From: a virus
Taxonomy: Duplodnaviria > Caudoviricetes
Length of the DNA: 64,000 nucleotides
Virus record (IMG/VR): IMGVR_UViG_3300032332_001787
Span: 166,098 to 230,097 of that record
Direction: 5' to 3' (one strand)
The translations under genes were made by a program, and so were the position numbers. Below the pieces are notes generated by a model. It saw only the letters and a program-made list of their open reading frames with translations. It had not been told where the DNA came from and did no database searches. Below, one piece after another: positions 15,601-30,239 of the stretch (position 1 is the stretch's first letter; the number at the start of each line of letters is the position of its first letter).

Positions 15601-18600
15601 TCAGATGCTCCCTCATTAATTTGTTTTTCGTCGCCCAATAAATTTTTTGGTCTTCTTGTGTCATAAGCTGTAACACGAATATTATTTCTAGAGTCTGTTT
15701 TATCATTAGTATAGAATGCAGGAGTAATAAATTTATTCTTTATGGGTTGTTCCGGAGATTTACCCGATGAAATTAAAGATGCTAAATATTCTTTATATGT
15801 TAATTCATCATAATAATCTAGTTTGCTATTATTTGCTGCTGGAATCATTATAGCAGAAAATGGCTCTTTACTTCCATCAGATCCTTCCTGAGCAGAAAAT
15901 TCTGTAACAGGATTTTCGGACTTAGGCATTTGTGGCTTTGCTTGTTTCTCGTCCGGTCTTTGTAATGGTCGTGCTGCTGGTATACTTCTTTGACTTTGGC
16001 GTGCTGCTAATATATCTCTAACCACAAAAGCTGTTTGAGTTAAGCCATTGATACTAGCAAATCTACCTCTCTTGGGTTTTACAACAACATCGTCCAGTTG
16101 TTTCCTAATCTGTGCCAAGTCGTCTGGTTTTATACCATATTGATGAGCTACGTCATCTAATATTTGCTGTCTTTTTGCGGCTGCTGCTGGGTTGCTCGGT
16201 GTCGCATTAAGGATATCATATTCTTTATTGAAATAATCATCAAACATCTTGTTGGCATCTAGTTTGCTAAAATCACCACTAACATCTATTCCTAATCTAG
16301 CGAATGTTTCTTTAGTCTGTGCTTGTGCGGCAATGTAAAGAGGTGAATTATCTGTGAGTTTTGTTAAGAGAGCTGGATCAATGTAGTCTGGACTAGATTT
16401 CAATAAATCATCAAAATGAAATTGAGCTGCTTTAGATCGTACGTCTCCTAATGTCTGTAGAGCAGAAGCAACATCACCAACAGCTAATGAATCATATTTT
16501 CTTTTTATTGCAATATTATACGCGTCACCAATATTACTATTGAATTTACTTTGAATTTCTGCTAATCTTTCTAATGCAGCCGGAGCGACAGATCTTGCTG
16601 TTCGTCTACGGTTATAATCTTCAACAGCATCTCCAATTTTTTGTCTTATAGAACGCCTACCACCAACTACTTTTCTAGAATTTGAACCAGCTTGACTTCC
16701 TAAATCATCTGCGAATTTAGCAACAGCATTTTCTGGAGGTATAACATCTGATCCAACAGCCATCAATCTAGTTAAGCTTGAATCGCCAGATTTTATAGCT
16801 TCTGCTACTACTTGTTTCGATAATTTTTTAGTTGTTATAGTCGCTACTGCTTTACTGATAGCATTATCAGCAACTGAACCACCAGCAATTTCTGCAGCAA
16901 ATCCTGTCCATTGTCCAGCCGCATATGCTTCTGGATTTTTCTTAATTTTTTCTTCTATATCTGTTTTCATAGAAGATGGAAGCATTTTATAAATTTCTTG
17001 ATTTAGGTATTGCCCCAATTGATCACCAGCTAATCCACCGGCTACTGCTCCACCAACGCCGACAACAGGACCTGCTATATTACCTGCAATAAATCCTAGA
17101 CCACCCAAACCTAAGCTTAGAAGACCTGGGATTGCTTTGCTTGCTATACCATAACCAAAAGCTTTCCAATCCCAATTCATAGGCTTAAAGCCTAGTGTTT
17201 GCTTTTGTATAAGAGCTTCTCTATCTATAGTACCTTGAGTAAATGGATAATTAGGATCTCCACTATAAAATTGTTCTTCTAGTGTATTACGAGATATTTT
17301 TCTATCACCGTATTTGATCTTATTAGCTGCTTCATAAGTTTGTATAAACTCTAGACTACTAGTTCCTAGTTTCTGTTTTTGAGGATCAAGCTTAGCATAT
17401 TTAGTCTTAGCCGCAGCAGATAAATATTCTTGTATATGATGATCGTATGCAGCATTATAACTATCTAATTCTTGAACACTGATTTTACCATCTTTATTTC
17501 CTCTAAAATCAAGATAGTCAAATATTGTTCCTTTTGCTGTATATTCTTTATCGTCTAAAACACCATCTTTATTAGTATCATATCCATTAAAATATTTTGC
17601 TCTATCCATTGGCATAAAGTCTTTTTTAACAGTTAAACCGCCTCTAGCTAAATAATTAACAATTCCCCCAGTAGAATAATGATTTCCGTTATTAATAGCT
17701 TTGAGCAGTGGTAAGTTTTTCTGTGTTGCTTCTCTGTTGATTACAAACTCTCCGGGAGTTAGCATAGCCGGAACAGTATCTGTACCTCGTGGTTGAAAAT
17801 TAACCATTTGTCCGTTCGCTGCATATATCATGCCACCATTTGCTCTCATTTGTGGCTCAGCCATTTGTCGTGCCTCAAACCATTCGGCCGATGGTAGCTG
17901 TCCGTATTTTGCAGAAACGCCTAGTTGTGAGTTAGCAAGATTAGCATTGTCTCTGACTTGATCAGCACGGCCACTCTTTATGGCTTGAATTACAGCATCA
18001 GTTCTGTCTTTTTCTGGTAGATTCTTATCATAAAAATAATCTTGTCCTGGCCAGCCAACTATTCCACCAGAATACCATGTTAGTAATGAACCTAGTGCAT
18101 TATCTATATATGATGCTGTTTGTGGATCATAAAATGGCATACCCAAAGAATCTTTACCTTGAGATATGTCTGTTCTAAGCTTACTAATAATATTTCTTCT
18201 AGTATCAATATTTGTAAATTCGTTATATGGATTTAATCCAAGATCAACAAGTTCTGCATAAGTTTTTGGTACTTGATTTGTAAAGTCTTCATAGGTTAAA
18301 GATCCATCAGCTCCAATAGTTCTAATTTTTGATCCTTTAAGAGATTGTCCTAAAGTTGCTTTAAAATCTGATGATAGTTCTCTACTTGCTGCTTTTTGGA
18401 AATTTGCTGAGGCCCCTAACGATCTGAATAATGATTCCATATCGCCATTATCAAGCAAAGTTTTAATAAATCTAGTATTACCACCAGCAATACCACCAAA
18501 AGCACTAGTGGCTCCTGCTAGAAGACCATACGCCTCTTTAATAGAATTATACTGCTGCGGACTACGAGCCATATAAAACAAGCGACTAGCATATGCTCCA

Positions 18601-21600
18601 GCCTCATTAAATACATTACTAGCATATGCTGCTGCCTGCTTGCCCATATCATCGTCTTTTAAAGGACGAGCACCAAATCCGGGAACTCCTCTTAAATATC
18701 TAAAGGCCCAGCCGCTACCAAAACCTGGAATTTTTCTACGACCAAAAACCCCCAAAGCTCCTTTTGCTAGTTTTTGAACAGTGTCTTTAATCTCTCCTGG
18801 ATTACCACCAATAATATCTGCTAGCTGATTAGGATTATCTATGCTTTTAGCTGCCCTAGTAGCAGTATTTTTAGTAGCAGAACTAAGATCTTTAATTGCA
18901 TTAATTAACCAATCTCCTACTTCTAGATTGGCTCCTCTGGGTATAACGTCATTAAAAATAAGACTATTCATTGCGTCCGGAGCATTTGAAGCCAAGCCTA
19001 AAGCATTAGAAAATGATATAATATCATTGGCTTTGATTTGTTTAGATAAATTATCTTGTTTAGTTTGGTCATTATTAATTAAAGCATTATAATACTGATC
19101 TAATAAAGGAATAGCTTGAACTTTATTTAATAGATCCCCTGGAGTAAATTCTGAGCTATTATAAATTCTCTTCTTGTCAATTTCTAGTTGTTGAAAAATG
19201 TCCAGGGGACTCTTATTTGGTTCTGGAATAAAAATATCTTTTAACTGTCTTGCTGGGTCTTTAGAGAAACTTCTTGTCTTTTCATCCCATAATGGAGCAC
19301 TATACTTCGTATACTCAACTCCATAGTTTAAGTCTAAATTCTTGCCACCAACAGGAATGGATAGTTTGTCCATTTTGAAACCAAGAGATTGCTTCTTGAT
19401 CGGCCCATTTTTCATTTTATTAACAACATCTTCTTTAGCTTTTTCTTCAAAATTCTTTCCTAAAGAATCTAAGTCAATATTCATCATCCATGGAAAATGC
19501 TTGGGTGCTCCACCAGCTACTGTTGATGTTACATCAAAGAGATTATACAATTGCGTCAACTCTTTATTTTTTAATCCTGGATCTTTCTTATCAATAGCAA
19601 ATTGTACTCCATTAGCCTTAGCTTGATCCAAATTTAAACTTTCAACAGTGTCTTGTAGTGTTGAGTTTATGTATGGAGTATTTGGAAAGACAAATAATGT
19701 GCGAGGTTTACCTAATGGAGCAAAAGTTTTTAATAGATCAACTTCTCCCGTTAGGTCTTCGTGACTAGATGTTCCATTATATAAGGCTGAAAATGATTGC
19801 ATCAATTTATCATAACTGCCATTTACAGACTGATCAAACTTTACTCTAGTATCATCAAAATCGAGAGCTTGTGCAATAATATTTTTATTTTCATTGTGTT
19901 TCTCAATTAAAGAGTCAATTTGACTTCTGTTTTTAAGATATTTAGAATCAGGACTATTACTAGAAATACCGGGATAATACAATATATTATATTTAATGGC
20001 TGAAGATGGACCAAATTTTTTCCCAGCATAATCACCGATATCATAAGATGGTTCACTAGCAGATACAGCATCAACATGCCCCATACCAAAATATGTTGAT
20101 GATTGCCAAATTTTATTCATTGGGGCGTTATTAAAATCAACAGATGGTACTGGTGGTGGACTACCAAAATACAAACCAGCCCTATGTCTTATCTTTCCAT
20201 TAGGATTATACTCAGAATGAGTAAGTGTAGATGGCTCAACAGATGATGGAAAATCTCCTATGCTATCTAGTTCATTTCCTAAATTAAGTTTATCCAAAGA
20301 TAATGTTGGATATTTTGCTCTTAGCTTAGTACTATAATTAGCTGCTTCAATTTTAGAAACTTTAGAAACCTCCAAATTTTCTCGACCAACTAATAATTTA
20401 TCTGTTAATATGGGTTTAAATTCAGCTAAGTCTTTTGATGATTTATCTAAGGCAGTATATTTTGCTGTGGTACCACCATCAAATCTATCAGTAACTCTTA
20501 TTGGAGCTGTAACTCCAGCAACAATCTCTCCACTATTGTCCCATATATTATCGGTTTTGAAATCTATAAAACCAAAAGTATTTTTAGGAGTTTTATTTAA
20601 ACCATTTCTTTGTAGTCTAGTAAATATCTGAGGGCCAGCAAGTGCTTTTTCAGAAGCATTGTCTATTAGTTTATTATTTTTGTTTAAGTCTAGATAAGAA
20701 TCTTGTGTTAAGTTAAAATTATCAGAATCTCTAGACGTGGTTTTCATAAAATCACTAACATATCCACCATCAGCATAATAACTAACCTTGCCACCACTAC
20801 TAAATTTATTACTATTGATACTTTGCAATAAAGGAAGATTAGCCTGAGTAGCTGCTCTATTAACCACAAATTCTCCAGGTGTTAACATGGCTGGTACTGT
20901 GTCTGTTCCTTTAGGAGCAAAGTCAACATTCATACCAGCAGCAGCATATATAATTCCTCCTGAAGCTTTTCCAGCAGCCGGAACTGGCTTATCACCCAAT
21001 TTATTTTCGATAGCTTTAACATTTGCAGCAATATCCGATAGTTCTTTGTTTTCAAAAGTGACTTTAGACTTTGTTAAAGCTTCTGCAAGAGCTTCTGCTG
21101 ATTTATTCGCAATTTGTGAAGCTAAATTATTATTAAGCATAGCTAGTTGTTTATTAGCATCTGACTGTGTATTAATAGCCTGTTGATATTGCTGCATTGC
21201 AGCTTGTGTTTCTGGATCAGCTTGTGGATTTCTCAGAGTATTTAAAATCTGTTGAAAAACTGGAGATACTCCCTGGCCAGATTCTTGTAACATGCTTTCT
21301 AAAACATTTGCTTTAATATTATTTGCTTGTTTATTATCTCCTAAAAATGGCATAACATCTTTCAGAGCACTTAAAGTTTCTTTTCTATCATTAGCAAAAG
21401 CAACTTGAGCAGCTTTCATAGCTTCAAATCCTGAAGCCCCATTATTTAATGCTTCAGCATATGCTTTTTGAGCACTTTGAGAATTTTGTATAGTATTAAC
21501 TTGACCCCTAATATTATTTTGTAGTCTACCAAAAGCAGCATTGAGAGAATTAAATTCTTCTGGGGTGCTAGTTACTAGTTTTTCTATAAAACCAACTTTG

Positions 21601-24600
21601 CCCTCATTCTTTTGCTGAGCTTCTTGAATTTTATTCAGAGCCGTCGAAGCAATGTCGGTATTCTCTGCTAAATTTTTTAAAGCATCATAATTTTCTCTTA
21701 ATGCAACATTAGTATTTCTTAAATTATTTTGCATACGAACAAAATCATCAGCTCCTTGTGGACCTCTTTGACGAGCTATGTCTGATGATCCCTCTTGAGC
21801 TTTTCTAGTATTATCTAAACCTAAGATTTGATTAGCTATATCTTGTGGTCTTGTTGGGCCGCCTGTTTGTTGAGCAGTTGTGGCTTCTACATTTCTTCTA
21901 ACATCCGATACATCTATAGTTTTGCCTAAAGTTTTTGCTAATTCTAGCTGTCCATCTGTTAGGATTTGAGTTGACTTTCTCAATTTTTCGTTGGTGTCTA
22001 TTTGAAGATCAGCTAATTCATTCATTCTAGTAGAATAATTATTTAAAGCATTCTGCCAATTTTCCAAAGCTTTGAGAGCGACTTCTTGCGCTCTCTTACT
22101 GCTTTCTATAACTTTAGATAATTGAGGTATTTTTTCCACTAATTGAGTAAAATCGACTTTATCATCTCCACTCTTTCTCATATCTTCTAGAGCTTTAGAT
22201 ACTTCTCCTGATAATTTGCTACTTATATCTGGTGGAAGCTGTAATGAATCTAATTGTTCTTGAACAGCTTTTTGTATAGCAAATCCCATTTTCTCATTAT
22301 TCGATTCTGGATTTTTTCTAATAGTATTATTAATAGTTGATAGTATACTACTCTCTAAATTGCTTCCTATGCTTAATAATCCTTTCATAACATTAGTACT
22401 ACCACTAAACATGCTAGCAGCTTGAGATCTAGCAGAGTTATTTTCTGCTCCAGAATAAGCATTAGGGTTTTGTAGCACATTCATGCTATTTAATGAACCT
22501 GAACCAATTTTAGCTTCACCCTTTAGTGAAGATGAGGCTAAGTCTAGATCTCTAGACATCTGTTCTAGTCCAAAATTAGTTTTATTAATAGACTGTTCCA
22601 TATTCTGAAACATTCTTTCCAAACTACGAGCAAAATTACTAGTTGAATTTTCTAATGATTTCATAGCAGCTTCTCTTTCCGCTATAGCTGCCTGTTTGCG
22701 AATAGCTGCTTCTGCATGCATACCAATAACTAAATCTTGTCTTGCTTTTTTCTCATCTGCTGTTAAATCTATATTATTATTAATAGATTGAATTTGTGCA
22801 TTAACTGACTTATCCGCCATAGCCAAAGAAACAGCAAATTGATTAACATCAGTACCAGCTCCTTTAAATTCTGTAATCAAATCACTAATATTAGCTCCGC
22901 CCTTCGCTTTATTTGTAATTAATTTATTAATATTTTCTGCTACTGGAGTAAATTGTTTCGCAGACTCTTCGGCTCTTCCTGGTATTAAATCTTGCACATA
23001 GCTTGATCTTGTTTGTTCAGCTTGGATATTACCAGTCATTTCACTAGCTTTTTTACCTGCTATCAAATCCTGGATACCTTGAAGTAATCCGCCCTGATTG
23101 CCCATAACCTGACCAAAACCAGTAGATGCAAAATAGGCCCCTATTCCTTTTTTATCCAGAATATCTGCTCTATCGGCAGCAGCAGACTGACTACTAATCC
23201 CTTCTTTTTCATTACTTCCAAAAGAATCTAACATATTCACCCAAAATGTCTTGGCCATTTTACTATTAATATCCATACTAGCTTTAGCCATGTTGGCAGC
23301 TTCAGCAAGTTTAGATGTTATAGTTCTTTGAATATTAATATCTTTTATATCTTTTTCTAATTTGACAAACTCTAAAGCTGTTTCTTCTAAAGCACTATTT
23401 AATTTATTTTGTATCATCTTTTTCTCAAAAGCCAATGCTGCATTTTTGGCATCAATAAAAGCCTGACCGACAGCAGCAGCAGCAACAGCGGCGACTCCAA
23501 GAGATCCGGCCAATTTACCCAATCCTGGAAGCATATCCTTTACACCTCCTCCAATCATAGCCCCAGTAGCTAGCATATTAGTGCCACCTTGCAATCCAGC
23601 TGATAACTGAGCATTGCTGGAACTACTTTCAGCATTAATATTTTGAGCTATTAAACTGCCTATCATCTGAACACCAAAAGCAGCACCCATCATGCCTTGT
23701 CCACTCATTCTACCACCGGATCCTGGACCACCAGAACCCCTAGTTTCATTTAGTGTTGCTCTTCTAGTATCAGCTTCTTGTTTAGCTAATCTACGAGCTT
23801 CTTGTAAAATTCTATTTCTGTCTCCACCAAAACGTCCCTCTGCTGTGAGTTGTGTTCTTAATTCGCCTCTTCTTCTAGCTTCAAAGGCTCGGTTCATTTG
23901 CTCAAATGTTCTTGGATCTCCCATAGCAGTATTAATATATTGTCTAAGGTCATTACCGCTTAGCCCTGCTGTCTGTGTTGGTGATAATCCTGCTGTTCGA
24001 GCTGCTCTTCCATATGAAACGCTTTCTGCTCGTCTCATAAAATTTTCATCAACTTCACCTCCCCTTGCTTGACGTCTTTGAACCATAGCTTGTAAATTTT
24101 GCTGTGCGTTATGATCTATTGTTTCTAATTGACGGCCACTAACTCCGGATAATTGTCTTTGAGCCCTGACTTGAGTTGCTGCTTGCTGTCTCATATTAGC
24201 AAGTCTTGTTTCAGCTTCTATAACAGTTTGCATCGGAGCACCAGAAACTCTTAATCTTAAAATATCAGCTTCATATGCATTGATAGCTGCTCTAGAACTA
24301 ATTTGTCCACCTTTGCGAATAATTTCAGCAGATGATGATGATGTTACTCCTAATTGAGTTAATGCTTCTGTTATTTCATTTAATTGAGTAACCACACCAT
24401 CTGTAATGCGAACATTCTCTAAAGAAGCTTGTGCTCCTGGTCTAGCTGGCACTCTTGGACCACCACCTAAGAAAAATCTTTGAACAGCTCCACCAGATGA
24501 GAATTGTTGAACACCAATAGCACCGCCATCACTAAGTCCTAAAGCTTTTGTTGCAGCTGCGCGAATTATGAAGCTACCTACTGGTAAACCTATTGGCCCA

Positions 24601-27600
24601 ATACTATCGCTAGTTCCTGTTCCCGGACCTTTAAAAACACTAATGCCTCCACCAGCAAATGATCTCATGCCATTACGATCTGCCCGATTCATTTGTCTTA
24701 ATTTAGAATATCCTATATTTTTTGCTAACTCTGGAGGAACATAAGCTTCTCCAGAGCTAACTAGTGCTGGAACAGTATCAGTTGCGTCTCCTCCAGTTGA
24801 ATATCCCTTAACATTTTTAAGATAAGTAACAATGTTGTCTTTTATGGTTGATGGACCAGCTAGTGTTCTTTTAACATCAGTTGGTATATTAGGAGGTAGT
24901 TTTGGTTCAAATTTTTGTGAGACTCTACCAAGCCCAGTCATAAAATCAAATCCATTACCCTTTGGTGATCCTACTGCTCCTAGTCTTCTTATAAATGCTT
25001 CTAATAAATTGCCTTTAAGTGATTCTATATTTTCTAATGATTGTGTGTTTTCTTTTAATTTTTTAACTCCTCTATATCTATAAACATCAATTCCTTCATC
25101 GGCTCTTTGTTTAGCAGCGTTTATGTTTCTTTTGTCGTCGTCAACAAAAATAGATCCTGGAGTTAGTTCTGCCGCTTTTAGCTTGGCAATATCTGATCCC
25201 GAAACGGTGGGACCGCCCAACCCTTTAAATTGACTATCTGTTATTGGTAAGCCTTTACTGCTTAACCATGTTTGAATTAAGGGGAGCGTTGCTTTTGGTC
25301 TAGCTGTTATTACTCGTATATTTTTTAATAGCTCTGGTTTTTTACCTACTAAAGAAACTAATTGACGACCTAGTACGCTTAATTTGGCTTTACCCAGAGC
25401 CTCAGTTACTTTGGGAATATCAGAGAATTCACTAAATCTTGGTTTTTTGGGATCTGCTAAAATTTTATCAGCACCAAAAGCTAATGTTCTATCGAAATCC
25501 AGAGCTAATTCTCTACCAGACTCAAATCCACTTAATACTGATCTGACCTTTTTCTTTTGATAAATTATTTCTGCTCTTTTTTCTTTTTTAGCCTGTGCCA
25601 TTGGTATAGTATCAACAGCCTTATCAAAACTAGAATCTATACTACTAGCTCTTTTTTGATTTTTATATACTCCACTATAAATGCTAACAGTATGTTGTTT
25701 ATTTGGATCTTTTAATTTGCTGTCTTGTATAGTTTGAATTACTGGCTGGGCTGCAAATGCACTGCCAAATAGTCCAGCAGCACCAAATACTAATCCTTTA
25801 GCTGTTGCTTTATTTTGTTTTCTTGTTTGACTAGCTTCTTTTTTGCTTGCTAATGCAGCTTTTTGTTTAGTAAATTCTGCTATAATAGCAGCTTTGCTTG
25901 CTGCTTGTTGTGGGGTCGGTGTTCGCTTATTTAGCGTTGTATATACTTCTGTGGCGCTAATACCTCCAATAGCCCCAGCTTTTTCTGCTCCTAATAATTT
26001 TATAATCTCTTGTGTTGTAGCAGGTTTACCGGTTGTTGGGGTTACTATTCCAGCATCAACAAATTTACGAATATAACCACCAGAAGATTTACCTAGTCTC
26101 TCAAGCTTGGTAAGCATTCTAGCTGGTCTTCGTCCCAAGATAGCTTCATCCGTGTCTCTCTGCGCCCTTAAATCTTTAACTCTATTTGCAACATCGGTTG
26201 GTGTTTTTGCAGTAACTCGACTAGGCAGTGTCGATAGTTCAGCAAGGGTTGATGAGTATCTTCCTGCTCTTCCTTTTCTTTTTTGGGCATTTTCTTGAAT
26301 TCTTGCAAGAATACTGTCTAGTAATTTTGGCCTTTTTTGTAACGTAGCCATATAAGGTTTTAAATAAGCTATGCCTTCTGGAGTAAGAAGTTTTTTCATA
26401 GCTTCGATATCATTACTCATAATGGCTGCTCTGGCAGCAGTGCCACTAATGCCGTCTCTAGCTATTTGCATTGGTTCATAACCCTGTGAGCGATATCTGT
26501 CCATGGTAGTAGATGGCTTATCATCGCCCATATACGCAATGTTCTTTTTATTTGGATTTGGAACGATATAAGAATCATCTCCAACTTTAAAAACATTAGG
26601 AATAGAACCCGGAGCATTCCCTTTTGGCGCAGCAGAGACATTAAACCCTTTTGCTCCAAATACTTTTTGAGCCATTCCTACTCTTGAAGGTCCACTGGAT
26701 GATGTTTGGGGTAAAATTGCTGTTCTTTCTGTTTGATCATCTCTCTTGAAAGGGTCTACAGGAGTATTTCCAGAAACGTATATCACAGTATCTTCTGGTC
26801 TAATCTTACTTTTCTTTGCTCCCTGCATTACTGCTTTCACATGGCCAGCTGTTGTTGGTCCTAAATTACCAGAAAAGACTGCTGTTTTCTCTGGAGTTCT
26901 TACTGTTGGTTGATTAGTTCGTTTTTTACTAAAGTTAGGACCAATAGCATATGTTACAATTTTTTTTTGATCGATTCCAGAAACTTCTTTAGCTGCCATA
27001 TAAGCTTCACCAGCACCACTATCCAAAGAAGCTCCTTTAGTAGCTCCTGCTTTTCTTCCAAACAAACCGACACCAGTTAAGTCCCTGCTTTTACGATTCT
27101 CAATTAATACATTTTGAGATTCTTGAGTTCTAGATGATAAGTTGATAATTCTATCTGATTGAGTTAAAAACGCTTTTTGATTTGGTCCAACAACAGAAGT
27201 TGAGTCAATTATGCTATCTGATCGTAAAATATCTGCTTCTGTTAGAATTGGATATCTGTTAGTTTTGCGTAATTTTGCATTATCTGCTTCTTTTGCTCTT
27301 GCTCCACCTTGAATAAAAGTGCTCTTACCAGAACCAGCAACTCCATATACTGTGCTTAATTTCCCTAAATCTCCAGACTGTCTTCTCATAGCAGCCATAC
27401 TAGATAGATGTGATTTATATTTATGCACATCTGTGATCTTCAATCTTTCCATTTCTTTTCTAACAATATCCATATTAGATGAATCATTTAGAATATCTCC
27501 ATCTATATATCCAATATTGCGAATAGCAGTACCTCCAACTGCAAATTTTTGAATTTTTCCACCAAAACTAAGTTTATACTTGCCTTGTTTTTTTAACCAT

Positions 27601-30239
27601 GAAATATAATCCGATTTATATCCATTTACATCTTTCATGTCAGATCCATGGATAAGATTAATAGTTCCTAAATTTATAGTATCTATAGAATTTTTATTTG
27701 GGCGATTCTCTTTAAATCCTAAAGATCTGTATGGAGTATTTTCTAGCCTATATCTTATTAATTTACCAAGTATTTCGTTATCGCTTGTAGAGCCAGATTT
27801 AAATTTAACCTCATAAATATTTTTACCTTTAATAATATCTATAGGAGCATTACTAATATCACTATATCCATTTGCTCCACCGTATTTCTTTGCTCCTTTG
27901 CCCATTCTTTGTCTAACTAAATCTTCCATTACTGAACCGCTTATAGCATCAAATTTGCCTCTACTAGATGATCCCTTTAGTCCTATGGGAAATTTAATTC
28001 CATTTCTCTCTAATCTATTTGTAATCTTAGGATAATCTTTATCTTGAAAACCATAATCCTCAAATGTCTTTTTTTGAATATTTGCAAAAACCCTGTCATC
28101 ATTCTCTATGAACTTTTCAGATTGGTTTTGAAAAGTTTTAATTCTTTGTCCATTATCTGATCTTTTAGTTAAACTACTTAGTAATACTGGTTGAGTTAAA
28201 CCTCCTGAATTTAATCTTTGTAGGTTACCAACGCCAATAGCTTTTACCGCTGGTTTGCTCATGACAAACTCACCAGGAGTTAATTTTGCAGAAACCGTGT
28301 CTCCGTTACCAAAACCAGGAACGTAGCCTCCAGAAGCAAAGTGTCTAATGGGTCCACCTTCAGCAGCTCTTTGTCCCGGTCCAACACCCCTAAAACCTCT
28401 TCCGAAACCACCAGCAAACTGAGTAACAGCCTGAGCCCCTCTGAGAGCAGCAAATAAACCAAGTAATGGAACAAGCCCCTTAGCTGCATCAGCAACTTTA
28501 ATTAAGGCGCTAGCAAGATCTAGTCCTACTTTAACGATATTTTGAAAACTATCTGTATTTCCTATGCTACGAATTAATGCTAAAAATTCTTGTCTGACTT
28601 TTGCTATTTGAACTGCTAATGCCTGTTGTCCTTTAGCAGCATCTACAGCTAATGAACCTTGTCCTTCTTGGGCAACTTTTAATGCTTCTTGAGCAGTGCC
28701 GAACTGTTGAATAAGTGGTAGAACTTTACCAATCTGGCGGAAACCACCAAGTTCTTCGACTATAGAACTAAATTTCAGATCTCTAGGATCTAATTTGCCC
28801 AAACCTTCGCTAAGTCTTTGTACTGCTATATAAGGCCCAACGAATTTACCTTCTAAATCTGTCAATGTTACACCAAATTCTTTAAGAGCTTCGATAGTAT
28901 CTGCTCTTTGAATTCTGGTAAAAATTGTTCTTAAGCCAGTAGCAATAGTTTCTGCGCTTTCACGAGTTGTGGCTCGTATACTAGTAAATACAGATATGAA
29001 TTCATTTAAGGCTTGGGTTCCTTCGCTGACTCCTCTGCTAGAAGCTGCAAACACACCACCAGTACGTTGAATAGCTGTTATAATATCACTAGCTTCAACA
29101 GCAAATTTAGCCGATACTGCGTTGATGGAACCTAAGGCATTTTCTAATTGGCTACTACCTATATTAAACTGTCTCATTAGAGCAATAGATCCTTCAACAG
29201 TTTGATTCATGTCATCAAATGACGGAGCTAATGCACTTAGAGCTAATGCTTTTAGAGCTCTTTCAGTATCTTTAGCTGTTAACCCAGCTTGTGCTAAAGT
29301 TAATGTCGTAGAAGCTAATTCTGTTGATGAAACACCCAAAGAAGTAGATAGTTTATTAATTGTAGATGTAATATCTCCTAGTTTATCTTTAGCGTCACCA
29401 GTTACCTGACTAATTCTTGTAAGCTGTTGATCATATTCAATAAATGCGCTTACTCCATTCTTAAGAGCACTGGTAATACCATACGCCACGCCAGCCACAG
29501 TGCTAAATGCTGCGAAGCGTCTGATAGCTAGTCCTGCTTGTCTTCCGAAATTTTCTATTTCTCCTGTTGCTCCATTAATAGCTTGGCCGGTTCTAGCAGC
29601 ATTATTGCCTATGTTGCCTAAGTTGGTATTAAGTGATTGTAATCTAATGCTAGAAGCAGACCTCATAGCTGCTGCTAAAGCATCTATAGAACTTGCTGCT
29701 GCTGTAGCATTAGTTGCTGTCTGAACCAATAAATTATTAAGTCTTGTTAAATTAGTATTATAGTTATTAAGTGTTTGATTAATACCAGCATTTAATCTTA
29801 CATTAACAGAAACATTCAAATTGCCTAGTTGATTTCTGATTCTCGATCTTATTTGATTAACCGAAGAGGAAGAAACTGAAACTCCTACAGGAACTACTAA
29901 TCCACTTAATTGTTGCTTTATACTTTTACCAGCAGATTTAACAGCAGCTGTGCTAACTCCAATATTAATATTCGCAGATATAGAACTTAGTGCTTTTTTA
30001 ACGTCATTAACTATATTTTTAGTAGAAGTCTGATCAAGTTTGATATTTACATTCCCTGTTATTGTTCCTAGCTGTTTTTTTATCTCAGAAGATATAGATC
30101 TGAGATTGCTTTTATCAAGAACAGGAGTTATTGTTGCTGATACTGATCCTATTTGACGACGAATATCGGACACAACCGCCTTAATATTAGACGGTCCTCT
30201 TAGGTTAAGTTCTGCTGTTAGATTAAATCCTTTTGCCAT
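12651..30239 (-). CDS. Giant tape measure protein (5862 aa) with embedded enzyme-like cargo domains
   Basis: N-terminal TP901-type TMP core (AFIEYDQQLTRISQVTG...LSTSLGVSSTELA...LAQAG), Ala/Gly-rich helical segments, TMP-typical GTDTVPAMLTPGEFV motifs, and position after the tube and chaperone genes. Confidence 0.9.
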   Translation of the reverse strand: MAKGFNLTAELNLRGPSNIKAVVSDIRRQIGSVSATITPVLDKSNLRSISSEIKKQLGTITGNVNIKLDQTSTKNIVNDVKKALSSISANINIGVSTAAVKSAGKSIKQQLSGLVVPVGVSVSSSSVNQIRSRIRNQLGNLNVSVNVRLNAGINQTLNNYNTNLTRLNNLLVQTATNATAAASSIDALAAAMRSASSIRLQSLNTNLGNIGNNAARTGQAINGATGEIENFGRQAGLAIRRFAAFSTVAGVAYGITSALKNGVSAFIEYDQQLTRISQVTGDAKDKLGDITSTINKLSTSLGVSSTELASTTLTLAQAGLTAKDTERALKALALSALAPSFDDMNQTVEGSIALMRQFNIGSSQLENALGSINAVSAKFAVEASDIITAIQRTGGVFAASSRGVSEGTQALNEFISVFTSIRATTRESAETIATGLRTIFTRIQRADTIEALKEFGVTLTDLEGKFVGPYIAVQRLSEGLGKLDPRDLKFSSIVEELGGFRQIGKVLPLIQQFGTAQEALKVAQEGQGSLAVDAAKGQQALAVQIAKVRQEFLALIRSIGNTDSFQNIVKVGLDLASALIKVADAAKGLVPLLGLFAALRGAQAVTQFAGGFGRGFRGVGPGQRAAEGGPIRHFASGGYVPGFGNGDTVSAKLTPGEFVMSKPAVKAIGVGNLQRLNSGGLTQPVLLSSLTKRSDNGQRIKTFQNQSEKFIENDDRVFANIQKKTFEDYGFQDKDYPKITNRLERNGIKFPIGLKGSSSRGKFDAISGSVMEDLVRQRMGKGAKKYGGANGYSDISNAPIDIIKGKNIYEVKFKSGSTSDNEILGKLIRYRLENTPYRSLGFKENRPNKNSIDTINLGTINLIHGSDMKDVNGYKSDYISWLKKQGKYKLSFGGKIQKFAVGGTAIRNIGYIDGDILNDSSNMDIVRKEMERLKITDVHKYKSHLSSMAAMRRQSGDLGKLSTVYGVAGSGKSTFIQGGARAKEADNAKLRKTNRYPILTEADILRSDSIIDSTSVVGPNQKAFLTQSDRIINLSSRTQESQNVLIENRKSRDLTGVGLFGRKAGATKGASLDSGAGEAYMAAKEVSGIDQKKIVTYAIGPNFSKKRTNQPTVRTPEKTAVFSGNLGPTTAGHVKAVMQGAKKSKIRPEDTVIYVSGNTPVDPFKRDDQTERTAILPQTSSSGPSRVGMAQKVFGAKGFNVSAAPKGNAPGSIPNVFKVGDDSYIVPNPNKKNIAYMGDDKPSTTMDRYRSQGYEPMQIARDGISGTAARAAIMSNDIEAMKKLLTPEGIAYLKPYMATLQKRPKLLDSILARIQENAQKRKGRAGRYSSTLAELSTLPSRVTAKTPTDVANRVKDLRAQRDTDEAILGRRPARMLTKLERLGKSSGGYIRKFVDAGIVTPTTGKPATTQEIIKLLGAEKAGAIGGISATEVYTTLNKRTPTPQQAASKAAIIAEFTKQKAALASKKEASQTRKQNKATAKGLVFGAAGLFGSAFAAQPVIQTIQDSKLKDPNKQHTVSIYSGVYKNQKRASSIDSSFDKAVDTIPMAQAKKEKRAEIIYQKKKVRSVLSGFESGRELALDFDRTLAFGADKILADPKKPRFSEFSDIPKVTEALGKAKLSVLGRQLVSLVGKKPELLKNIRVITARPKATLPLIQTWLSSKGLPITDSQFKGLGGPTVSGSDIAKLKAAELTPGSIFVDDDKRNINAAKQRADEGIDVYRYRGVKKLKENTQSLENIESLKGNLLEAFIRRLGAVGSPKGNGFDFMTGLGRVSQKFEPKLPPNIPTDVKRTLAGPSTIKDNIVTYLKNVKGYSTGGDATDTVPALVSSGEAYVPPELAKNIGYSKLRQMNRADRNGMRSFAGGGISVFKGPGTGTSDSIGPIGLPVGSFIIRAAATKALGLSDGGAIGVQQFSSGGAVQRFFLGGGPRVPARPGAQASLENVRITDGVVTQLNEITEALTQLGVTSSSSAEIIRKGGQISSRAAINAYEADILRLRVSGAPMQTVIEAETRLANMRQQAATQVRAQRQLSGVSGRQLETIDHNAQQNLQAMVQRRQARGGEVDENFMRRAESVSYGRAARTAGLSPTQTAGLSGNDLRQYINTAMGDPRTFEQMNRAFEARRRGELRTQLTAEGRFGGDRNRILQEARRLAKQEADTRRATLNETRGSGGPGSGGRMSGQGMMGAAFGVQMIGSLIAQNINAESSSSNAQLSAGLQGGTNMLATGAMIGGGVKDMLPGLGKLAGSLGVAAVAAAAVGQAFIDAKNAALAFEKKMIQNKLNSALEETALEFVKLEKDIKDINIQRTITSKLAEAANMAKASMDINSKMAKTFWVNMLDSFGSNEKEGISSQSAAADRADILDKKGIGAYFASTGFGQVMGNQGGLLQGIQDLIAGKKASEMTGNIQAEQTRSSYVQDLIPGRAEESAKQFTPVAENINKLITNKAKGGANISDLITEFKGAGTDVNQFAVSLAMADKSVNAQIQSINNNIDLTADEKKARQDLVIGMHAEAAIRKQAAIAEREAAMKSLENSTSNFARSLERMFQNMEQSINKTNFGLEQMSRDLDLASSSLKGEAKIGSGSLNSMNVLQNPNAYSGAENNSARSQAASMFSGSTNVMKGLLSIGSNLESSILSTINNTIRKNPESNNEKMGFAIQKAVQEQLDSLQLPPDISSKLSGEVSKALEDMRKSGDDKVDFTQLVEKIPQLSKVIESSKRAQEVALKALENWQNALNNYSTRMNELADLQIDTNEKLRKSTQILTDGQLELAKTLGKTIDVSDVRRNVEATTAQQTGGPTRPQDIANQILGLDNTRKAQEGSSDIARQRGPQGADDFVRMQNNLRNTNVALRENYDALKNLAENTDIASTALNKIQEAQQKNEGKVGFIEKLVTSTPEEFNSLNAAFGRLQNNIRGQVNTIQNSQSAQKAYAEALNNGASGFEAMKAAQVAFANDRKETLSALKDVMPFLGDNKQANNIKANVLESMLQESGQGVSPVFQQILNTLRNPQADPETQAAMQQYQQAINTQSDANKQLAMLNNNLASQIANKSAEALAEALTKSKVTFENKELSDIAANVKAIENKLGDKPVPAAGKASGGIIYAAAGMNVDFAPKGTDTVPAMLTPGEFVVNRAATQANLPLLQSINSNKFSSGGKVSYYADGGYVSDFMKTTSRDSDNFNLTQDSYLDLNKNNKLIDNASEKALAGPQIFTRLQRNGLNKTPKNTFGFIDFKTDNIWDNSGEIVAGVTAPIRVTDRFDGGTTAKYTALDKSSKDLAEFKPILTDKLLVGRENLEVSKVSKIEAANYSTKLRAKYPTLSLDKLNLGNELDSIGDFPSSVEPSTLTHSEYNPNGKIRHRAGLYFGSPPPVPSVDFNNAPMNKIWQSSTYFGMGHVDAVSASEPSYDIGDYAGKKFGPSSAIKYNILYYPGISSNSPDSKYLKNRSQIDSLIEKHNENKNIIAQALDFDDTRVKFDQSVNGSYDKLMQSFSALYNGTSSHEDLTGEVDLLKTFAPLGKPRTLFVFPNTPYINSTLQDTVESLNLDQAKANGVQFAIDKKDPGLKNKELTQLYNLFDVTSTVAGGAPKHFPWMMNIDLDSLGKNFEEKAKEDVVNKMKNGPIKKQSLGFKMDKLSIPVGGKNLDLNYGVEYTKYSAPLWDEKTRSFSKDPARQLKDIFIPEPNKSPLDIFQQLEIDKKRIYNSSEFTPGDLLNKVQAIPLLDQYYNALINNDQTKQDNLSKQIKANDIISFSNALGLASNAPDAMNSLIFNDVIPRGANLEVGDWLINAIKDLSSATKNTATRAAKSIDNPNQLADIIGGNPGEIKDTVQKLAKGALGVFGRRKIPGFGSGWAFRYLRGVPGFGARPLKDDDMGKQAAAYASNVFNEAGAYASRLFYMARSPQQYNSIKEAYGLLAGATSAFGGIAGGNTRFIKTLLDNGDMESLFRSLGASANFQKAASRELSSDFKATLGQSLKGSKIRTIGADGSLTYEDFTNQVPKTYAELVDLGLNPYNEFTNIDTRRNIISKLRTDISQGKDSLGMPFYDPQTASYIDNALGSLLTWYSGGIVGWPGQDYFYDKNLPEKDRTDAVIQAIKSGRADQVRDNANLANSQLGVSAKYGQLPSAEWFEARQMAEPQMRANGGMIYAANGQMVNFQPRGTDTVPAMLTPGEFVINREATQKNLPLLKAINNGNHYSTGGIVNYLARGGLTVKKDFMPMDRAKYFNGYDTNKDGVLDDKEYTAKGTIFDYLDFRGNKDGKISVQELDSYNAAYDHHIQEYLSAAAKTKYAKLDPQKQKLGTSSLEFIQTYEAANKIKYGDRKISRNTLEEQFYSGDPNYPFTQGTIDREALIQKQTLGFKPMNWDWKAFGYGIASKAIPGLLSLGLGGLGFIAGNIAGPVVGVGGAVAGGLAGDQLGQYLNQEIYKMLPSSMKTDIEEKIKKNPEAYAAGQWTGFAAEIAGGSVADNAISKAVATITTKKLSKQVVAEAIKSGDSSLTRLMAVGSDVIPPENAVAKFADDLGSQAGSNSRKVVGGRRSIRQKIGDAVEDYNRRRTARSVAPAALERLAEIQSKFNSNIGDAYNIAIKRKYDSLAVGDVASALQTLGDVRSKAAQFHFDDLLKSSPDYIDPALLTKLTDNSPLYIAAQAQTKETFARLGIDVSGDFSKLDANKMFDDYFNKEYDILNATPSNPAAAAKRQQILDDVAHQYGIKPDDLAQIRKQLDDVVVKPKRGRFASINGLTQTAFVVRDILAARQSQRSIPAARPLQRPDEKQAKPQMPKSENPVTEFSAQEGSDGSKEPFSAIMIPAANNSKLDYYDELTYKEYLASLISSGKSPEQPIKNKFITPAFYTNDKTDSRNNIRVTAYDTRRPKNLLGDEKQINEGASDQLEITRLAGSIYGETNNAFKELSDYNQLKLIESPDEATQQTSKKTLGIMQTSYGAAITSLTELSKLINLSKTGNRSIMIGEKQDILVNIDDMVGKLQTLKTNYYSEVLAKGEPLTKINDSILDQFDKPFIRTNAEGKEVSPPEGGYSGKQVREARMDSDQKVRGMSGIETQYQNSYKYYRRILGEYNYHQNIGKGDKYAKGQKTTSSVSYKGQNSPRRMYTGGIVYASEGTLVNFQPRGTDTIPAMLTPGEFVVNAKATKANLSLLKSINSGGTKQYATGGVVYLAEGGRAFDNVLSQIQIDLSDIVGAQYNPAYADKIKQNIKDRESKGVRRVEKTIKNKETGKYETVGEEVKTDEKIKKEKEARDTANKQKIEEYEKFDKQRQTYLNEIIQNKPRQEQAIELADNIREKLRIMKTEFIAQIEEKVKNEAQKLGISLSELFETNTMAKAEWDFIKGKDVEPIGDIETFVKDIKNIISSHSIIKGMGGDSVNIKSISAENINTPNGRRLYYTEVKAKEIKQKNDSGVDGILPDDYRYFVIGNTEKVEGPLSLKPKQMSTGGIVYASNGMLIPYEPKGTDTVPAMLTPGEFVVNRSATQANLPLLKAINNGQTKAYSKGGVVYLAAGGETAQRDKALSQSPAGQLILTIKQQAESNKTLFEALDSSAFSNISSGDLEKKYNDVWSKLDADARYNAAKTQFTQDKKRVDYLTGVYSNASSAYATLKGNQLAVNTKIGDINILQLLKGQEAAMSEAKAIHEAWVSLAQKYPEFRADIGQGGTQAAGTGAVAGTPPTPEKGADKPPEKEPVNKRYGGMVYAAAGGNILPFTPISRGTDTVPAMLTPGEFVVNRTSTQRNLPLLQAINNNRYANGGQVGKVNYLYRGGQPTDETGGGGGVSTGGGSASPNTDGLSQFTATFQSFIDQLKNINPVINLKGEHNVNVNFNGAQYLALMDESIRKIVLSEVNAAMGDLHRDTEGAVGKRR
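13062..28304 (-). repeat. Eight dispersed copies of the G(T/D)DT(V/I)PAMLTPGEFV TMP module
   Basis: Near-exact copies at about 13062-13106, 13827-13871, 14841-14885, 17742-17786 and 20865-20909. Divergent copies at about 24560-24630, 24738-24785 and 28263-28304. Confidence 0.9.

Follow-up and report, generated by a model that had tools for sequence, protein, structure and literature searches.

A predicted P-loop kinase and HIGH-superfamily nucleotidyltransferase cassette within the giant tape measure protein of a freshwater jumbo phage

The tape measure protein and the boundaries of the cassette

The window analyzed here is a stretch of 64,000 nucleotides (IMG/VR record IMGVR_UViG_3300032332_001787, positions 166,098 to 230,097) from a freshwater jumbo phage with a 230-kb genome; all features described below lie on its minus strand, and coordinates are window positions. 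A single ORF (P0001; 12651..30239) encodes a giant tape measure protein of 5,862 aa that is host to the cassette. A TP901-type tape-measure core at aa 253-595 (28455..29483) matches TIGR01760 (E=3.8e-26; 91.9 bits against a cut-off of 28.8), PF10145 (E=1.5e-24; 87.5 bits against a cut-off of 33.2), and several PHROG tape-measure families. Based on these profiles, P0001 is predicted to be a TP901-family tape measure protein with its core at the N-terminus. This N-terminal core is common to >539 giant relatives of 3.2-10 kaa, many of which are annotated as TP901 family tape measures. HAD-like and nuclease-like segments also occur within P0001.

Alignments to cassette-less relatives place the whole cassette, with both flanking linkers, at aa ~894-1393 (26061..27560). 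A divergent P-loop kinase-like domain with a conserved N-terminal GYIDxDVL lead-in (aa 908-1115; 26895..27518), assigned from the predicted structure and conserved residues, is followed by a HIGH-superfamily Rossmann-like nucleotidyltransferase (NTase) domain (aa 1116-1320; 26280..26894), assigned from structure matches, profile matches, and a Pfam tally. The C-terminal helical tail (aa 1321-1386; 26082..26279) contains a long helix in the model (block residues 358-390), and cassette-less relatives lack it as well as the enzymes. Upstream lies the linker motif GGKIQKF (aa 893-899; 27543..27563), and downstream lies GGYIRKF (aa 1387-1393; 26061..26081), at which homology to cassette-less proteins resumes; these are the only two matches to GGxIx[KR]F in all of P0001, one per flank. 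The cassette-less relative P0102, which aligns to P0001 over aa 1-903 and then from aa 1387 on, has a single linker copy (GGSVRKF) at the junction. P0100 aligns over aa 1-685 and then from aa 1381 on, and P0104 keeps aa 891-1817 with 71% identity. The boundaries of the cassette are precise and fall on the duplicated GGxIxKF linkers. The first-pass annotation had placed a kinase and nucleotidyltransferase pair at 26350-27480; this span lies within the conserved unit, but the unit itself is larger (window ~26061-27560).

The block begins with Met in most family members. We rejected an internal translation start at M930, as the Met is absent in 12/55 homologues, conservation as coding sequence extends over the preceding 20 residues (GYIDxDVLxDPxN), and no Shine-Dalgarno sequence lies ahead of the codon. 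Based on this upstream conservation, the start of the block was moved to about aa 894-908.

Distribution of the cassette

We retrieved an unbiased set of 105 giant tape measures using the tape-measure core alone, independent of the cassette. Both domains were found in 36 of these proteins, neither in 69, and only one in none. Gain and loss affect the kinase-NTase pair as a whole, and it is swappable and accessory. Because of the 36/69/0 distribution, we consider the cassette to be accessory cargo of the sort typical of conflict genes, and an accessory role in conflict is probable. All three motifs are kept in 32/36 of the independently retrieved copies, and the cassette is present in two of the five complete sister genomes. 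Among 67 long homologues, the kinase precedes the NTase, adjacent and in the same order, in every case (gap of -1 to 25 aa; median linker, 4 aa, making the fusion a rigid one); these homologues were fetched using the block itself, and their co-occurrence count is circular.

A phmmer search of 1.84 billion representatives for free-standing homologues identified only giant proteins and short-contig fragments, and profile searches at free-standing lengths identified one fragment only. Neighbors in the ESM Atlas, used for leads only, included viral proteins with fused Zeta_toxin/AAA_33 and CTP_transf_like domains (scores ≤0.90). The cassette-less complete sister genomes carry neither a free-standing CTP_transf_like gene nor a Nampt gene as a substitute. 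One sister phage encodes a free-standing HIGH NTase in an HldE-like pair, which shows no relationship to the cassette (hhalign probability 2%). Other cargo of the effector type is found in related tape measures, for example ADP-ribosyltransferase-like (ART-like) domains, which occur in 38/175 long relatives. We also considered and rejected a role of the cassette in supplying NAD+ to a co-injected ADP-ribosyltransferase, as ART-like domains are not enriched with the cassette (6/30/20/49).

Conserved motifs

We aligned 55 homologous blocks, which have a mean column identity of 36%, and examined residues across the family. In the Walker A motif (P-loop) GVAGSGKST (aa 966-974; 27318..27344), G971 and K972 are invariant (55/55). 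The segment AVFSGNLGPTTAGH (aa 1120-1133; 26841-26882; coordinates verified by script) includes the (H/T)xGH-type motif G-N-L-G-P-T-T-A-G-H (aa 1124-1133; 26841..26870), in which G1124, P1128, and H1133 are invariant and T1130 and G1132 are conserved in >90% of blocks; its family-wide form is G-x-F-x-P-x-T-x-G-H. The ISxTxxR-type motif ISGTAAR (aa 1264-1270; 26430..26450) has invariant S1265 and R1270, with T1267 in 53/55, and is preceded by invariant R1261, giving the family-wide form R1261-x-x-G-I-S-G-T-x-x-R1270. R1172 and R1186 are also invariant, and R1303 is near-invariant.

A script check found every motif position in the first-pass annotation to be right, and the Walker A, G-x-F-x-P-x-T-x-G-H, and [I/V]S[G/A]T-x-x-R motifs that it recognized are invariant or nearly so in 55 diverged homologues. 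Three other elements that it had singled out look different across the family. The supposed Walker-B-like IIDST is not conserved, and the invariant or near-invariant acidic residues are instead D1003 and D1029. YMGDD (26520-26534) does not behave as a motif, as only K1241, just after it, is conserved. Within the proposed RKSR lid (27084-27095), R1052 (54/55) and R1049 (45/55) are conserved, but the other residues are not. Judged from the alignment, the motif set is far beyond chance, and strong purifying selection has preserved the catalytic signatures of both halves. The cassette appears catalytically intact, and we consider it very likely that both domains are active enzymes.

The nucleotidyltransferase half

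A tblastn search identified zero matches in GenBank phages, and single-sequence searches of Pfam, NCBIfam, and PDB with the window's own copy returned nothing significant; the sequence matches of the cassette all came from family profiles. In the two-domain AlphaFold model (pLDDT 91.9, pTM 0.88), the first NTase motif lies at the end of beta-1 and the start of helix A, and ISGTAAR lies at the N-terminus of the C-terminal helix, as a HIGH NTase requires. VIA-align matched this half to NadD (Z 15.2; 4rpi, rmsd 2.6 Å, 155 residues aligned), PPAT (Z 14.0), and NMNAT (Z 13.8 and 13.4), and more weakly to NadR (Z 11.0), TmcAL (Z 10.6; range for TmcAL/MJ0951, 8.9-10.6), and HldC (Z 9.1). Foldseek identified NadM, PPAT, and NMNAT at about 1e-5 to 2e-5, and PPAT fills the Swiss-Prot fold list. 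The NTase half has the Rossmann-like fold of NadD, archaeal NMNAT, NadM, and PPAT (Z 13-15, rmsd 2.6-3.1 Å, about 150 residues), with the (H/T)xGH and ISxTxxR motifs in the same canonical positions; however, it differs from them in an insert of about 60 residues, specific to this family, between core strands, in its low sequence identity (11-18%), and in extra basic residues conserved across the family (R1172, R1186, K1241, R1261, and R1303). The matches do not single out any one subfamily.

At the level of the predicted structure, these matches confirm the NTase half as a HIGH-superfamily (cytidylyltransferase-like) Rossmann nucleotidyltransferase. Fold, motifs, and family conservation agree with the original proposal that an NTase of the NadD/NMNAT/cytidylyltransferase type is fused to a P-loop kinase-like domain within the tape measure protein; the modelled fold, at Z 13-15, is of the Rossmann-like HIGH type on which that proposal depended.

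Aligned against PDB, the family profile matched MJ0951 (2e-8), the NMNAT domain of Bas30_86 over its full length (4.8e-7), archaeal NMNAT (2.5e-5), TagD (7.7e-4), and, through the N-terminal motif only, PPAT (2.9e-3). The ISGTAAR region gave the best local matches, to MJ0951, archaeal NMNAT, and TagD, whereas the best full-domain relative by profile comparison is the NMNAT domain of Bas30_86. In the Pfam tally over 55 members, HIGH_NTase1_ass was matched by 33 and CTP_transf_like (PF01467) by 10 (E≤0.01; best, 6.8e-6), the window's own copy not being among the latter. Matches to CTP_transf_like were confined to part of the family, AAA_28 and AAA_33 were matched by 0/55 members, and no NadD equivalog model was reached. 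None of the NCBIfam equivalog models was reached; TIGR01526 (nadR_NMN_Atrans) gave matches at E of about 0.03 in 2/55 members and none in the window's copy. The substrate of this domain may be that of NMNAT, PPAT, or CitC/TmcAL-type enzymes.

The kinase half

The model of the kinase half (pLDDT 91.5) contains a Walker A motif, kinase-type topology, and an Arg-bearing lid, as in Zeta toxin/AAA_33 kinases. The P-loop pattern GxxGxGK[ST] is invariant, and further conserved residues besides K972 are D1003, D1029, R1052, and R1062; R1049, R1052, and R1062 are located past the third strand, on a helix and a loop. The best VIA-align match is the zeta toxin 6epg of N. gonorrhoeae (Z 7.9, which is marginal), over 144 residues that include the N-terminal helix. 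It is followed by a flat list at Z 5-7 (adenylate kinase, PNK, AvrRxo1, DPCK, and NRK1), in which unrelated kinases fall within 1 unit; four dephospho-CoA kinases score Z 5.4-6.0, and the polynucleotide kinases 4gp6, 3zvl, and 4xrp score 6.2, 5.8, and 5.2. Foldseek returned no match under E=0.077 for this half, and zeta toxin / UDP-GlcNAc kinase recurs among AFDB clusters at E 0.03-0.2. Pfam identified no AAA_28, AAA_33 (PF13671), or Zeta_toxin (PF06414; tested at E≤0.01) in the 55 members. NadR chains are absent from the 50 best structural matches, and the RNK domain of 9x6f has only P-loop-level similarity. The kinase half is a very divergent P-loop kinase and is not of the RNK type found in NadR.

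Comparison with known kinase-adenylyltransferase enzymes

Jumbo phages are known to encode NadR-like and NadM-like enzymes as free-standing proteins (PMC7824862), and the phage NadR-like enzyme Bas30_86 converts NR to NAD+ experimentally and defeats Sir2-HerA (PMC13464706). Like NadR and Bas30_86 (PDB 9X6F/9X6H; PMC13464706), the cassette combines a P-loop kinase and a HIGH adenylyltransferase in one polypeptide, and it further resembles Bas30_86 in being phage-encoded, in the T-x-G-H variant of the first motif, and in its predicted two-step ATP-dependent chemistry. However, NadR and Bas30_86 have the NMNAT before the RNK, whereas the cassette has the kinase before the NTase (67/67); its kinase is not RNK/AAA_28-like, and the cut-offs of TIGR01526 and other equivalogs are unreached. 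In contrast to NARP3, the cassette has no PnuC partner and lies inside a tape measure rather than free-standing. The membership in NadR suggested by the first-pass annotation does not hold, given the reversed order, a kinase with no AAA_28/RNK affinity, and the lack of any match at equivalog level to NMNAT, NadR, or NadD. From its suggestion of NadR-like NAD+ salvage, the nearness of the NTase to the Bas30_86 NMNAT domain survives, but the cassette is not NadR, and PnuC and Nampt are missing. HldE matches the cassette in having its kinase N-terminal to a HIGH adenylyltransferase and in a logic of phosphorylation followed by adenylylation; its kinase, however, has the ribokinase (PfkB) fold instead of a P-loop, and the NTase match is weaker (HldC, Z 9.1).

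A proposed kinase-then-adenylyltransferase pathway

The explanation that we favor, albeit tentatively, is an accessory, swappable kinase-adenylyltransferase cassette with possible NAD+-type synthesis in counter-defense or host takeover. The P-loop kinase would use ATP to place a phosphate on a hydroxyl of a small nucleotide-type metabolite, and the NTase would then join the AMP of a second ATP to an oxyanion, most likely the new phosphate, with release of pyrophosphate (X-OH to X-P to X-PP-adenosine). The lead candidate for this series would be nicotinamide (or nicotinate) riboside to NMN to NAD+, in which case the cassette would be analogous, but not orthologous, to NadR and the phage NARP3 enzyme Bas30_86, serving counter-defense or host takeover.

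That NAD+ is the actual product is more doubtful. PPAT is structurally level with NMNAT (Z 14.0 vs 13.4-15.2), and the best local sequence and Pfam signals belong to the carboxylate-adenylating HIGH_NTase1/CitC group, both of which count against NAD+. We found no match to PnuC (PF04973) across the 230-kb genome, no match to Nampt (PF04095) in the source genome or the five complete sister genomes, and no other cytidylyltransferase-like or HIGH NTase gene in the source phage; because the phage has none of these, the corollaries of NARP-type salvage fail.

Since the cassette belongs to the tape measure, it would be ejected with the DNA into the cell or would work from a late-made pool of tape-measure protein. 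Tape-measure copies per virion are few and the NAD+ pool comprises about a million molecules; because of the low copy number, an injected enzyme would probably be unable to rebuild the pool within an infection cycle. A folded domain pair of ~55 kDa would be able to pass through the tail tube only unfolded. Delivery by the tape measure of a ready-made ATP-dependent enzyme pair with the DNA, before phage gene expression, as an NAD+/NAD-like synthase or an immune-signal modifier, is a rather unlikely form of the proposal. Polyvalent and enzyme-bearing tape measure proteins are, like P0001, large virion proteins with interchangeable enzymatic cargo thought to be active at or after DNA entry, and they share its cassette-like gain and loss, with ART-like domains in sister proteins. 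Known tape-measure cargo is mainly muralytic, unlike the kinase/HIGH-NTase pair; an ATP-dependent pair of this kind is absent from the 2017 polyvalent-protein catalogue, and we found no description of one in the literature searched.

Alternative explanations

Several other functions would also account for a kinase joined to an NTase. The cassette could be an effector in the style of zeta toxins or AvrRxo1, in which the kinase phosphorylates UDP-GlcNAc, NAD+/NaAD, or a defense second messenger and thereby poisons the host or inactivates a signal, and the NTase acts on the same dinucleotide-like ligand by binding, making, or remodeling it; a few injected copies would be enough if the target were a low-abundance signal. 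The nearest kinase structures, N-terminal helix included, are those of zeta toxin/PezT/AvrRxo1, with a Walker A motif and a lid-like helix and loop that are rich in Arg; the N. gonorrhoeae zeta toxin ranks first (Z 7.9), and AvrRxo1 is also listed. AFDB clusters and the Zeta_toxin/AAA_33 plus CTP_transf_like neighbors in the Atlas point the same way, as do the zeta-type kinases known in injected phage polyvalent proteins (PMC5512222), and the accessory distribution suits a conflict role. However, the kinase matches are without exception marginal (Z<8; Foldseek E>0.02; Atlas ≤0.90), no member matches Pfam Zeta_toxin at E≤0.01, and the catalytic Asp position is putative. Zeta toxins in characterized systems also have no NTase fusion, and this function leaves no clear job for an obligately fused adenylyltransferase. 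We regard it as unlikely. A pathway to another cofactor or activated metabolite is less likely again; examples are CoA, whose last steps are carried out by PPAT and dephospho-CoA kinase (both present in COASY), a sugar phosphate activated in the manner of HldE, and a CDP-alcohol. PPAT comes to within 1 Z unit of the best NMNAT/NadD matches and makes up the Swiss-Prot fold list, the four dephospho-CoA kinases, TagD (E=7.7e-4), and HldC (Z 9.1) are all among the matches, and the order of HldE is the same; yet the sequence profile prefers NMNATs over PPAT by 3-4 orders of magnitude, PPAT aligned through the first motif only, and the HldE-type pair of the sister phage is unrelated (hhalign probability 2%). 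To our knowledge, no defense system depletes CoA.

The pair might instead process nucleic-acid ends, with a PNK-like kinase acting on 5'-OH ends, either of cleaved tRNAs or of the genome as it enters, and the NTase adenylylating the 5'-phosphate to an App-end, a reaction chemically equal to that of NMN to NAD+, so that ends would be protected or readied for sealing. Polynucleotide kinases occur among the kinase matches, T4 PNK was identified by Foldseek with the whole block, P0001 contains HAD- and nuclease-like segments, and a low-copy injected enzyme fits a low-copy target; the source phage, which we take to be heavily invested in tRNAs, also fits. This is nonetheless very unlikely, as the closest NTase relatives are small-molecule enzymes, and the HAD phosphatase occurs in only 19/67 block-bearing proteins at variable positions and is negatively associated with the block in the 105-protein set (11 both, 25 block only, 52 HAD only, and 17 neither). 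A Pnkp-style coupling of a T4-type kinase to a HAD 3'-phosphatase was rejected on the same grounds, the HAD domain being optional, variably placed, and negatively associated. We know of no HIGH NTase that adenylylates polynucleotide ends. Also very unlikely is a carboxylate-adenylating ligase of the CitC/TmcAL/MJ0951 type, which would form an acyl-adenylate and then acylate a thiol or amine on a host or phage target, independently of the kinase. MJ0951 is the best PDB sequence match (2e-8), HIGH_NTase1_ass is the most frequent Pfam match (33/55), and citrate lyase ligase (Citrate_ly_lig) is the top match in AFDB Swiss-Prot and comes up repeatedly in Atlas searches by shape and by feature. The similarity to MJ0951 is nevertheless local, covering about 42 residues of the ISGT helix and the next helix, a segment common to archaeal NMNAT; Z to TmcAL/MJ0951 (8.9-10.6) is well under that to NadD/NMNAT/PPAT (13-15), the long C-terminal domains of these carboxylate-adenylating enzymes are missing in the cassette, and the obligate kinase fusion is left unexplained. 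The extreme divergence of the kinase half would also suit non-catalytic, nucleotide-binding domains with a structural or assembly role in the tape measure. We consider this the least probable explanation, as the canonical catalytic residues are all invariant over deep divergence, with all three motifs in 32/36 copies, and a structural role is ill-matched to absence from two thirds of close tape measures.

Significance

Near-identical tape measures with and without the cassette provide a natural experiment in matched phages. If the kinase-adenylyltransferase cassette is active, siphophage-type tape measures would be vehicles for cytoplasmic ATP-using enzymes, beyond cell-wall hydrolases, and the idea of the polyvalent injected protein would reach the tail. 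An active cassette would also represent two orphan clades of enzymes, one of P-loop kinases and one of HIGH nucleotidyltransferases, whose members to date all come from uncultured freshwater jumbo phages. In the contest between phages and bacteria over NAD+ or nucleotide signals, it would be a fourth solution, structurally unrelated to NARP1-3. If delivery with the DNA also proves true, P0001 would be the first tape measure protein bearing cytoplasmic cofactor-metabolism enzymes, and the cassette would represent a kinase/NMNAT fusion family that is both new and non-orthologous, having evolved as an exchangeable counter-defense cassette.

Giant tape measure carrying the cassette

The window is the final 64 kb of a 230,097-bp IMG/VR virus record that is rated complete, and matches to this stretch came from freshwater metagenomes. 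The whole finding lies within a single giant ORF, P0001 (5,862 aa; window 12651-30239, minus strand, as for all P0001 features below), which is adjoined by orphan genes; a second giant ORF of 4,198 aa occupies 46783-59379 (minus strand). At its N-terminus, P0001 carries a genuine TP901-type tape-measure core (TIGR01760, E=3.8e-26; PF10145, E=1.5e-24), which also matched many PHROG tape-measure families. A ~70-aa tape-measure C-terminal-type motif (G-T-D-T-V-P-A-M-L-T-P-G-E-F-V-V-N) occurs in at least five copies in P0001 (aa 3111, 4152, 5119, 5457, and 5712; window ~13010-20910), with degenerate copies at approximately aa 640-690 and 1860-1900. In a solved tape measure (8rk3), the C-terminus aligns with a similar motif; given this likeness, the first ~690 aa of P0001 resemble a complete ordinary tape measure. 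Judged by sequence, cargo would make up the remaining ~5,000 aa.

Weak EF-hand matches (PF13202, E=0.0013) occur at aa ~4215-4260 (window ~17460-17580), and precomputed annotation also lists EF-hand Pfam matches in several relatives. The segment GNLLEAFIRRLG...PTDVKRTLAGPST (aa ~1741-1805; window ~24830-25020), initially labeled a second PD-(D/E)xK-like domain, showed similarity to the archaeal primase small subunit (1g71) at chance level (E=0.36). The homologue P0012 (4,166 aa) is named [quoted passage not shown] at NCBI, a weak hint of Bacteroidota hosts for this phage group.

Homologues and motif conservation

We used HMMER to scan P0001 aa 930-1330 against 1.84 billion representative proteins; this analysis identified 85 clusters, nearly all of them giant proteins (2,000-7,300 aa) matched across the entire 400 residues. 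These are encoded on contigs of 140-235 kb and named hypothetical or tape measure, and the few short matches are fragments from 1-7-kb contigs. No GenBank phage carried the cassette. An internal translation start at M930 was rejected.

The motifs reported in the first-pass annotation, among them Walker A (27318-27344), were all located exactly where it had placed them. Across 55 aligned blocks, which average 36% column identity, conservation is complete or exceeds 90% in the Walker A G/K, in G-x-F-x-P-x-T-x-G-H and R-x-x-G-[IV]-S-[GA]-T-x-x-R, and at additional Arg, Asp, and Lys positions. Neither the proposed "IIDST Walker B" nor the "YMGDD" signature is conserved among these blocks.

Structure of the two halves

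AlphaFold2 with the family alignment produced a confident two-domain model (pLDDT 91.9, pTM 0.88). The C-terminal half (aa ~1116-1320) was identified from the model and family profile as a Rossmann nucleotidyltransferase (NTase) of the HIGH superfamily, and VIA-align and Foldseek bear out this originally proposed fold. VIA-align ranked NadD highest (Z 15.2), followed by PPAT (14.0), NMNATs (13.4-13.8), NadM (13.1), NadR (11.0), and TmcAL (10.6), with ATP sulfurylase, HldC, and cytidylyltransferases all at Z ≤9; Foldseek agreed. Sequence searches with the window's own NTase copy were all below threshold; the family profile succeeded, matching MJ0951 locally around the ISGT helix (2e-8), the NMNAT domain of PDB 9x6f over the whole domain (4.8e-7), an archaeal NMNAT through both motifs (2.5e-5), TagD (7.7e-4), and PPAT at the first motif only (about 3e-3). 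Across 55 members, Pfam assigned HIGH_NTase1_ass to 33 and CTP_transf_like to 10, and NCBIfam returned only the generic cyt_tran_rel with scattered weak NadD, PPAT, NadM, and NadR matches. The NTase half leans modestly toward the NMNAT clade.

The N-terminal half (aa ~908-1115), modeled alone, has P-loop kinase topology (pLDDT 91.5), with an Arg-rich helix and loop at the expected lid position. This half is nearly an orphan: Foldseek found no match below E=0.077, and VIA-align placed zeta toxin at the top (Z 7.9), followed by a flat list at Z 5-7 of adenylate kinases, Pnkp kinase, AvrRxo1, dephospho-CoA kinases, and NRK1. AFDB and Atlas searches returned the same mix at marginal scores. NadR chains were absent from the top 50 structural matches.

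Comparison with NadR and predicted activity

The first-pass annotation read the pair as a NadR-like NAD+ salvage module, an idea with real precedent. PDB 9x6f shows Bas30_86, an NMNAT-RNK enzyme from a phage that resembles NadR and, with a PnuC importer, converts nicotinamide riboside to NAD+ and overcomes Sir2-HerA ("NARP3", PMC13464706), and free-standing NadR-like and NadM-like genes have been catalogued in jumbo phages (PMC7824862). This precedent and the modest NMNAT lean stand in favor of that reading, whereas membership in NadR/NARP3 is not supported: the two domains stand in the opposite order, the kinase lacks RNK character, equivalog cut-offs are missed, and this phage genome has neither PnuC nor Nampt nor a second HIGH NTase. 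The polyvalent-protein catalogue describes zeta-like kinases in injected phage proteins and mentions neither HIGH NTases nor tape measures (PMC5512222), and full-text literature searches found no prior description of this module.

Both halves are probably active enzymes. In the generic chemistry of such pairs, a hydroxyl is phosphorylated and an oxyanion is then adenylylated with release of PPi; here, the kinase half would phosphorylate the substrate hydroxyl and the NTase half would adenylylate the oxyanion, with PPi leaving. The leading substrate series, which we put forward tentatively, is NR/NaR to NMN/NaMN to NAD+/NaAD. A virion contains only a few tape-measure copies, which could not replenish a pool of roughly a million NAD+ molecules over one infection, and a folded ~55-kDa pair would have to unfold to pass the tail tube; both considerations weigh against bulk NAD+ salvage by virion-delivered protein. 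The copy-number problem would be avoided if the activity resided in the late-synthesized tape-measure pool or if the target were of low abundance.

Among rival explanations, the pair could modify an immune signal or nucleotide-linked metabolite in the manner of zeta toxin or AvrRxo1, or could serve another cofactor pathway, of CoA type or HldE type. Adenylylation of nucleic-acid 5' ends and adenylation of a carboxylate are further rivals.

Other cargo and possible partners

Downstream of the cassette, HAD-phosphatase-like motifs (LALDFDRTL, VITARP, and FVDDD) occur at aa 1578-1702 (window 25134-25508); neither Pfam nor NCBIfam matched this P0001 segment. HAD-related segments occur in 63 of 105 giant tape measures retrieved with the N-terminal core, where their association with the cassette is negative (11 proteins have both, 25 the cassette alone, 52 HAD alone, and 17 neither). 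Pnkp-like end healing was rejected because the HAD-like domain is optional and shows this negative association.

ART-like domains recur as alternative cargo, in 38 of 175 long related tape measures, some proteins having two or three copies. Relatives with domains like those of ADP-ribosyltransferase toxins include P0111 (aa ~1312-1499; PF03496 sub-threshold, 21.4 vs 23.4 bits), P0119 (precomputed match), P0102, and P0032. Supply of NAD+ to a co-injected ART found no support, since ART-like domains were not enriched alongside the cassette. In a complementarity test, cassette-less sister genomes had no free-standing NMNAT-like or Nampt gene.

One sister jumbo phage (G002) has an HldE-like pair of adjacent ORFs unrelated to the cassette (L030:1399-2555, minus strand). 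These resemble a ribokinase-fold heptose-7-P kinase (252 aa; rfaE_dom_I, E=3.8e-37) and a heptose-1-P adenylyltransferase (147 aa; rfaE_dom_II, E=1.4e-30), both below equivalog cut-off, and their sequences suggest phage-encoded ADP-heptose-type sugar activation. ESM Atlas features provided leads to candidate free-standing relatives of the cassette, namely viral proteins of 250-670 aa with Zeta_toxin/AAA_33/APS_kinase plus CTP_transf_like and viral HIGH NTases of ~190 aa (0.93-0.94 to the NTase half).

A swappable cassette

In homologues retrieved with the block, the NTase invariably follows directly on the kinase (median gap 4 aa). Because the block itself had served as the query for this set, we re-sampled giant tape measures through the N-terminal core, which yielded 539 relatives of 3.2-10 kaa. 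Among the best 120 of the 539, 105 were new: 36 had both domains, 69 had neither, and none had one alone. Of these 36 cassettes, 32 retain the three motifs intact. The nearest relative among the matches listed (89% identity over aa 1-685) lacks aa ~686-1380, another is continuous to aa 903 and restarts at aa 1387, missing exactly the cassette, and a third keeps the cassette at 71% identity. Two of five complete sister genomes have it.

P0001 contains exactly two copies of a GGxIx[KR]F linker, one at each cassette edge (aa 893-899, window 27543-27563; aa 1387-1393, window 26061-26081), and a cassette-less relative has a single copy at the junction. This restriction to the edges suggests, at the sequence level, that swapping may occur by recombination between linkers. 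Accessory gain and loss of the cassette as a unit speak against a structural function and are in keeping with a role in conflict, in which the cassette would act in counter-defense or takeover.
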